From a virus (Duplodnaviria; Heunggongvirae; Uroviricota; Caudoviricetes), in IMG/VR virus record IMGVR_UViG_2859827302_000009: a stretch of 6,599 nt of DNA; one strand, written 5' to 3'. This document shows positions 2,650 through 3,606 of this stretch, one piece after another; the stretch's first letter is position 1, and each line of letters begins with the position of its first letter. The translations under genes were made by a program, and so were the position numbers. Below the pieces are notes generated by a model. The model had not been told where the DNA came from, did no database searches, and saw nothing but the letters and a program-made list of their open reading frames with translations.

Positions 2650-2760
2650 ATGAACAAAACGCTAATCGCCGCAGCTGTGGCAGGGATAGTTTTACTCGCT
2701 TCAAACGCTCAGGCACAAACCGTACCGGAAGGCTATCAGCTACAGCAAGTGCTCATGATG
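2650..2760 (+). pseudogene. agp: agp (periplasmic glucose-1-phosphatase) 5' fragment: codons 1..37 only, interrupted by IS911
   Basis: [37 protein letters not shown] matches my recollection of the Agp signal peptide and N-terminus. A Shine-Dalgarno-like aggaa precedes the ATG at 2650. The frame then runs into the IS911 terminal repeat and stops 23 codons later at 2832. The junction is ambiguous within 2759..2762 because of tga microhomology. Confidence 0.8.
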
Positions 2761-2766
2761 AAGTGG

Positions 2767-3606
2767 TCAACAAAAACTGGCCACCGAGTTAGAGTTTTTC
2801 CAGTATCGATTTTCCGATTCGTTTGGGGGTAACCCACCGTTATATTCGTGCGGTCTTAGTGCGCTGTAATATCCAACGATATAGTCCGTTATGGCGTGAG
2901 CTGCCTCGCTGAAGCTTACGTAACCCACCACCGGCATCCATTCGTTCTTCAGACTCCTGAAGAAGCGTTCCATTGGGCTGTTATCCCAGCAGTTTCCGCG
3001 CCGGCTCATACTCTGTCTGATCTGGTATCGCCACAATAACTGCCGGAACTGCCTGCTCGTATAATGACTGCCCTGATCGCTGTGGAACATCACCCCGCCG
3101 GGCTTACCACGGGTTTCCCATGCCATTTCCAGCGCTTTCATGGTGAGCCTGCTGTCCGGCGAGAACGACATGGCCCAGCCCACTGGTTTTCTTGCGAACA
3201 GGTCGAGAACAACGGCGAGGTACGCCCAGCGCTTACCCGTCCAGATACAGGTCACATCACCGCACCACACCTGATTTGGCTCGGTCACGGCGAACTGCCT
3301 TTCAAGGTAGTTAGGGATAGCAACATGTTCATGACCACCACGTTTATACCGGTGAGTCGGCTGCTGACAGCTGACCAGCCCCAGCTCTTTCATGAGCCTG
3401 CCAGCAAGCCAGCGTCCCATCTGGTAGCCTCTCCGGGTTGCCATTGTGGCGATGCTTCTTGCTCCGGCCGAACCATGGCTGATGCCATGTAGCTCAAGTA
3501 CCTGACTGCGTAATACAGCCCGTCTGCCGTCTGGTTTTTCAGGACGGTTTTTCCAGTATCTGTAGCTGCTGCGATGAACCCCGAACACTTGGCAGAGTGT
3601 GACCAC
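2767..3606 (-). CDS. IS911 OrfB (DDE catalytic domain; expressed as the OrfAB transposase by -1 frameshift); ORF shown from first Met
   Basis: Translation contains the IS3-family integrase core ([31 protein letters not shown] ... [10 protein letters not shown] ... [19 protein letters not shown]). Its frame is offset from orfA, consistent with the -1 shift at 3678..3684. Confidence 0.85.

Follow-up and report, generated by a model that had tools for sequence, protein, structure and literature searches.

The agp locus of the Shigella chromosome CP026828.1 very probably bears the marks of two successive IS911-linked events in the clade of S. boydii, non-type-1 S. dysenteriae and S. flexneri 6: an old deletion of 7.9 kb, followed by an inversion of approximately 209 kb. 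The locus is an ordinary instance of the already known IS-driven decay of Shigella genomes, cleanly resolved, and not a new kind of change. The stretch of DNA analysed here, 6,599 nucleotides in length and referred to as the window, occurs letter for letter in CP026828.1 (positions 3,906,101-3,912,699), the record of a closed chromosome of 4.64 Mb. The assembly is labelled S. dysenteriae; by average nucleotide identity (ANI) it groups with S. boydii (PMC10501659).

Left flank of the window

The left side of the window is tied to the normal tor-cbpMA-yccE-agp neighbourhood by an intact cbpA gene for a curved-DNA-binding DnaJ-like protein (positions 1-921, minus strand). Its 306-aa ORF has an E. 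coli match annotated as cbpA, and the identical gene in sister loci carries the Pfam domains DnaJ and DnaJ_C. Next comes a 5' fragment of yccE (1182-1472, plus strand), placed by the alignment of window positions 3-1472 to 13673-15142 of the E. coli reference locus L011, in which yccE starts at 14852. The fragment ends at an IS1 copy within yccE (1473-2240, minus strand), which was recognised by its InsA/InsB ORFs and by IS1 matches in sister loci. This IS1 has no direct repeats and no 9-bp duplication, and approximately 849 bp of yccE are absent beside it (alignment gap at 15143-15991 of L011). The 3' end of yccE (2241-2357, 117 bp) and the complete yccE-agp intergenic region follow (together 2241-2649, plus strand; alignment to E. 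coli). The sister genomes are near-identical throughout, with flanks at 99.7-99.9% identity. Some of them have IS1 at different positions in yccE, and others have no IS1 there.

Truncation of agp

Positions 2241-2761 match the yccE-agp region of E. coli. The yccE-agp stretch is 99.8% identical to L011, and 2250-2761 is 100% identical in at least 25 complete E. coli genomes, in all of which agp is intact. The gene starts with the ATG at 2650, 8 nt downstream of an AGAGG Shine-Dalgarno sequence read directly in the window, and its codons 1-37 are those of the reference Agp. Nucleotide identity to agp extends as far as the first base of codon 38, at 2761. The terminus of IS911 begins at TGA (2759), as it does in three unrelated junctions of sister genomes (gcg|TGAAGTGG, ggt|TGAAGTGG and tgc|TGAAGTGG), so that the last base derived from agp is nt 109, at 2758 of the window, and the codon for M37 is completed by the TG of IS911. 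The alignment to E. coli genomes thus bears out the break after codon 37 and the intact upstream region that had been read from the window alone, and moves the last agp base to nt 109. The tga microhomology that the earlier note saw at the junction is a 3-nt coincidence with a chance of approximately 1/64; transposition needs no such homology, and the rutA-side junction described below has no overlap.

What is left of agp (2650-2758, plus strand; alignment to E. coli agp) is nt 1-109, which encode 15 mature residues behind the signal peptide (residues 1-22, ending in AQA). In the reference Agp the Pfam domain His_Phos_2 covers residues 30-363, and the remnant holds residues 30-37 only, whereas a functional agp has a complete His_Phos_2 domain with an N-terminal RHxxR motif. 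The sequence SRHNLRAP, which we take to be the catalytic RHxxR motif of histidine acid phosphatases, starts at residue 38. The break lies one codon ahead of the active-site motif RHNLRAP, so that no catalytic residue is left and the allele is null as judged from its sequence. The prediction of the earlier note that glucose-1-phosphatase activity would be lost is sound. Compared with Agp of E. coli, a periplasmic acid glucose-1-phosphatase and inositol phosphatase of the His_Phos_2 family, the locus has the same first 37 codons and the same 409 bp upstream, but with 8 of the 334 residues of the catalytic domain and without RHNLRAP it is a null remnant and not a gene.

The reading frame that begins at the agp start codon continues antisense through the right end of IS911. 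The earlier note had described this 60-aa fusion of the agp start to the end of the element, antisense to the transposase, and its description holds: agp codons 1-37 are followed by 23 codons from IS911 and a TAA stop at 2830-2832 (2650-2832, plus strand), and the orfA/orfB genes of IS911 lie on the minus strand, with the 3' end of orfB overlapped in antisense. The 60-aa ORF matches no Pfam family. It is found in identical form on 52 contigs, all from Shigella, where it is called a hypothetical protein. The agp'|IS911 junction is present in 0 of 5426 complete E. coli genomes, and an exact-pattern scan of the contigs of species-representative genomes gave no match to it. Together with the rutA'|IS911 junction it is a possible clade marker.

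The IS911 copy

IS911, a member of the IS3 family, was first described from Shigella dysenteriae. The window contains a full-length copy of 1249 bp (2759-4007, minus strand), with the right inverted repeat (IRR) at 2759 and the left one (IRL) ending at 4007, identified by its near-identity to other IS911 copies. It shares 99.8% identity over its full length with copies named IS911 by PGAP ("IS3-like element IS911 family transposase"). From 2759 the right end reads TGAAGTGGTCAACAAAAACTGGCC. Both ends read TGAAGTGG; the terminal repeats are imperfect, with 24 of 36 positions in agreement, and the element has TG..CA ends. orfA encodes 100 aa (3633-3935), and an OrfAB product of 389 aa (2767-3935) can be reconstructed through a -1 slip at A AAA AAG (3678-3684). 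Pfam finds HTH_Tnp_1 as well as rve and rve_3 in the same IS911 genes of sister loci. The copy therefore shows what is expected of IS911, i.e., a length of approximately 1250 bp, terminal repeats and frameshifted orfA/orfB genes with HTH and DDE (rve) domains; with the known element it shares the 1249 bp, the TG..CA ends, the -1 frameshift at A AAA AAG and the DDE (rve) domain.

A 3-bp target duplication is lacking here: the flanks are tga/aag in the window, tga/aca in the parental copy between agp and rutA, and gcg/aag in the copy within the prophage. This does not affect the identity of the element, since the copies border deletions or have recombined. Unlike a simple IS911 insertion, the window copy is without the 3-bp duplication: one of its sides borders a deletion, and recombination has since exchanged its flanks. 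It is the recombination product of two IS911 copies. The ten positions that vary among the IS911 copies are all private to single strains, and the window copy has the consensus at each; no diagnostic SNP marks the crossover within the element.

A clade-wide deletion from agp to rutA

All 13 of the 13 other Shigella assemblies in which both flanks of IS911 were read have an agp'|IRR junction identical to the base, and in them IRL abuts ACAGGGCGAAAT, which in E. coli is rutA from nt 140. Extension of a BLAST match 3 nt into the element had raised the suspicion of a 3-nt overlap at the rutA-side junction; direct reading gave TCG vs. TCA and ruled it out. The order of genes in L011 is collinear, agp-yccJ-wrbA-ymdF-rutGFEDCBA-rutR-putA, and relative to this locus 7,882 bp are missing (16510-24391). 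The deletion takes agp from nt 110 to its end, yccJ, wrbA, ymdF (annotated as a general stress protein), rutG, F, E, D, C and B, and most of rutA (from nt 140 on). Beyond the scar rutR and putA are unchanged. No match to the 3' sequence of agp was found in any locus read, including approximately 33 kb of CP026828.1. From the phage DNA on the far side of IS911 the earlier note had concluded that agp was lost beyond the break, probably together with genes downstream. The loss itself is confirmed by the 7,882 bp absent relative to L011, but the argument from phage DNA fails, the phage junction being that of a later inversion.

The first event would accordingly be an old one, shared by the whole clade, in which IS911 came to join agp to rutA, its IRR against agp nt 109 and its IRL against rutA nt 140, and the 7,882 bp between these points were lost. 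Two routes may have led there, either recombination of two directly oriented IS911 insertions or one insertion followed by an adjacent deletion, and the missing 3-bp target duplication (tga vs. aca) fits both. Among the sources named in GenBank for the rutA'-IS911 fusion ORF are S. boydii Sb227, S. boydii CDC 3083-94, S. dysenteriae and S. flexneri CCH060. As the ORF is common to these strains of S. boydii, S. dysenteriae and S. flexneri, the scar predates the diversification of the clade.

The same event would also have removed the pyrimidine-utilisation (rut) operon. In S. flexneri 6, rutABCDEFG have been reported absent, with rutR alone left, in 325 of the 325 genomes examined (PMC11708030). 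The outcome is the same here, with rutA-G gone and rutR kept, and CCH060, which has the rutA'-IS911 ORF, is a serotype 6 strain. Whereas the available part of the report gives presence or absence only (PMC11708030), the present comparison defines the breakpoints (agp nt 109 and rutA nt 140), places IS911 at the scar and adds the concomitant loss of agp, yccJ, wrbA and ymdF. The 7.9-kb scar thereby supplies a mechanism for the absence of the rut operon reported in S. flexneri 6.

The prophage remnant on the far side of IS911

On its left-repeat side the window copy borders a decayed P2/186-type prophage. The element cuts the cII gene, of which a 5' fragment remains (4008-4190, minus strand; Pfam Phage_CP76 on a 59-aa call, with phage matches annotated as cII); the stop codon of the fragment is the terminal TCA of IS911 (4005-4007). 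It is followed by a gene for an apl/cox-like small regulator (4217-4438, minus strand), a 73-aa ORF whose phage matches are annotated as Cox or regulator, and by the gene for the prophage CI repressor of 189 aa (4564-5133, plus strand), assigned by the Pfam domains Phage_CI_repr and Phage_CI_C and by phage matches. A small YdcA-like ORF lies between cI and int (5149-5352, plus strand), with the Pfam family PF27300 (YdcA) found on an identical gene. Its product has an N-terminal hydrophobic segment and several cysteines, and the gap between cI and int is a usual place for phage cargo genes.

A second IS1 (5474-6241, plus strand) stands in for the N-terminal two thirds of a P2/186-type integrase gene; at this place sister loci show Int_N (207 aa). 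The C-terminal integrase fragment fills the remainder of the window (6242-6599, plus strand; Pfam Phage_integrase on a 103-aa call, and the gene order in L021), and beyond it the genome continues with ybjK (rcdA)-ybjJ-ybjI...dacC. The arrangement is that of a P2/186-like immunity region: cI is divergent from apl(cox)-cII, int lies beside cI, and the replication gene A is located downstream. Across the window and the sister loci Pfam finds Phage_CI_repr/Phage_CI_C, Phage_CP76, Phage_integrase and Phage_GPA, and the prophage DNA is 70-80% identical to phages in which cI, cox and cII are annotated. With cII, dam and int all truncated, the prophage is a remnant only.

The two IS1 copies of the window are mutually inverted and approximately 99.7% identical, and they bracket the segment agp'-IS911-prophage; they are thus a substrate for further inversion.

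A probable inversion between two IS911 copies

Sister genomes contain a second IS911, which separates a 5'-truncated dam from the cII fragment in the prophage that adjoins ybjK (rcdA). In CP026807 (loci L002/L042, reversed, and L013, forward) and in CP026840 (L051 and L055) this dam'|IS911|cII' copy has the opposite orientation to the agp copy and lies roughly 220-270 kb from it. The sister genomes therefore have the two parental junctions, agp'|IS911|rutA' and dam'|IS911|cII', and both recombinant ones, agp'|IS911|cII' and rutA'|IS911|dam', occur in CP026828.1. The reciprocal junction was located through the truncated dam protein and lies at CP026828.1:3,694,276-3,706,824 (L056), where the order is putA, rutR, rutA' (76 aa), IS911, dam' (182 aa), gpA, an IS66-family element and dinI. 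Its IS911 occupies positions 3,698,936-3,700,184 of the chromosome. The two IS911 copies of CP026828.1 are 1249 bp each with 0 mismatches, are inverted to each other and lie 208,674 bp apart; their flanks were checked base by base. An IS-mediated inversion is recognised by precisely these features, i.e., two inverted copies of the same IS, four flanks exchanged pairwise and both recombinant junctions in one genome.

The second event would thus be a recent homologous recombination of the agp copy of IS911 with the identical, inversely oriented copy between cII' and dam' of the decayed prophage. It would have inverted 208.7 kb and given rise to agp'|IS911|cII', the junction in the window, and to rutA'|IS911|dam'. 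Because the deletion came first, the 3' part of agp is not found at the other endpoint of the inversion; an inversion alone could have left it there. The inference that the rest of agp is deleted since the far side is phage DNA does not hold as reasoning: the phage DNA was brought in by the later inversion, as both recombinant junctions in CP026828.1 and both parental junctions in the sister genomes indicate. Foreign DNA past an IS alone does not prove a deletion, because IS copies swap flanks by recombination.

Within the window alone, prophage DNA on the far side of IS911 and the lack of target-site duplications (tga vs. aag) would also suit a single IS911-associated deletion that ran from agp codon 37 into phage DNA and had the phage junction as its endpoint. 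This is very improbable. The prophage lies by ybjK, across tor-cbpA-yccE from agp, and these genes still precede agp' in the window, so that no simple deletion could bring agp' and cII' together in that orientation. Furthermore, the reciprocal rutA'|IS911|dam' in the same chromosome is the signature of an inversion, and the real endpoint of the deletion is rutA nt 140. The inversion itself is seen in one assembly, CP026828.1, and rests on correct assembly across two identical 1.25-kb repeats. It might be asked, then, whether both parental junctions, agp'|IS911|rutA' and dam'|IS911|cII', persist in the strain while the segment between the inverted repeats was merely flipped during assembly, for two 100% identical IS911 copies are a setting in which such mis-orientation can occur. 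We consider this improbable as well, though somewhat less so than the single deletion. The chromosome is closed at 4.64 Mb with both junctions mutually consistent, and a repeat of 1.25 kb is easily spanned by long reads. Sister genomes show other rearrangements of the same IS911 (on the yceA side twice and on the IclR side once), and such events are thus real and frequent in the clade. Even a flipped assembly would not restore agp, the parental arrangement being the 7.9-kb deletion. The deletion followed by the inversion is therefore by far the preferred account.

Possible expression of the agp leftover

As the signal peptide and the upstream region are intact, a 60-aa precursor (the signal peptide and a 38-residue tail) could be made and exported, and a transcript could run antisense into the 3' end of orfB, provided that the agp promoter fires. 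A simple consensus scan of 2241-4600 found no sigma-70-like promoter site, and in a terminator scan terminator-like sites were no commoner than in shuffled sequence. In the inverted arrangement the agp promoter points the same way as the prophage cI, which lies 1.9 kb downstream beyond IS911 and the antisense cII'/apl genes, and read-through would enter cI in the sense direction.

The 60-aa ORF is probably a by-product; nothing points to a function of the peptide or of an antisense transcript. It is highly doubtful that the agp promoter and the signal-peptide ORF are more than debris, whether antisense transcription would lower the transposase output of this IS911 and continue toward cI, or a 60-aa periplasmic peptide would be produced. 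What speaks for it is orientation, and the preservation of sequence in near-clonal genomes. Still less credible is the proposal that promoter, signal peptide and fusion ORF have been kept for a function, as a secreted small peptide or as an antisense RNA damping the IS911 transposase. Neither the upstream region nor the ORF varies among the 52 contigs, and the ORF does lie antisense over the 3' end of orfB; but this conservation carries no signal because the genomes are 99.7-99.9% identical throughout. Moreover, the tail of the peptide is the end of an IS read backwards, with no family match, and remains of this type are expected after any IS-mediated truncation.

Relation to IS-driven genome decay in Shigella

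IS911 is one of the five IS that have expanded in all Shigella (IS1, IS2, IS4, IS600 and IS911) and that cause deletions and rearrangements, changes that are well documented and define these genomes (PMC7373316). The present locus is alike in that IS911 truncates a metabolic gene, deletes its neighbours and gives the homology for a large inversion, and also in the many variants of the same IS911 copy among sister strains; there is no difference in kind (PMC7373316). A literature search found no description of agp loss in Shigella, of these agp-rutA breakpoints, of IS911 inversions in S. boydii or of the 209-kb inversion in CP026828.1. The locus provides a base-level record of the IS911-driven loss of agp, yccJ, wrbA, ymdF and rutA-G in one 7.9-kb scar, mainly of value for annotation, and the 209-kb inversion is a strain-specific record.

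Further rearrangements at the two IS911 copies

The rutA'-side IS911 has been independently rearranged in three other assemblies (L033, CP026866.1; L023, AKMY01000012.1; L026, AFGC01000037.1): two of them have yceA'|IS911|rutA', and in the third a truncated IS911 is joined to the region of an IclR-type regulator. Within the clade this copy is a hotspot at which recombination recurs.

The prophage copy of IS911 also sits on a deletion (4005-4190 of the window and 7556-8196 of L015), with cII cut at its 3' side and dam truncated at its 5' end; its flanks, gcg/aag, form no duplication. In several sister genomes (L013, L017, L020, L052 and L057) this copy is interrupted by IS1, which gives an element length of 2026 bp. 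In L020 the IRR flank differs as well (ccggt|TGAAGTGG), which points to yet another rearrangement.
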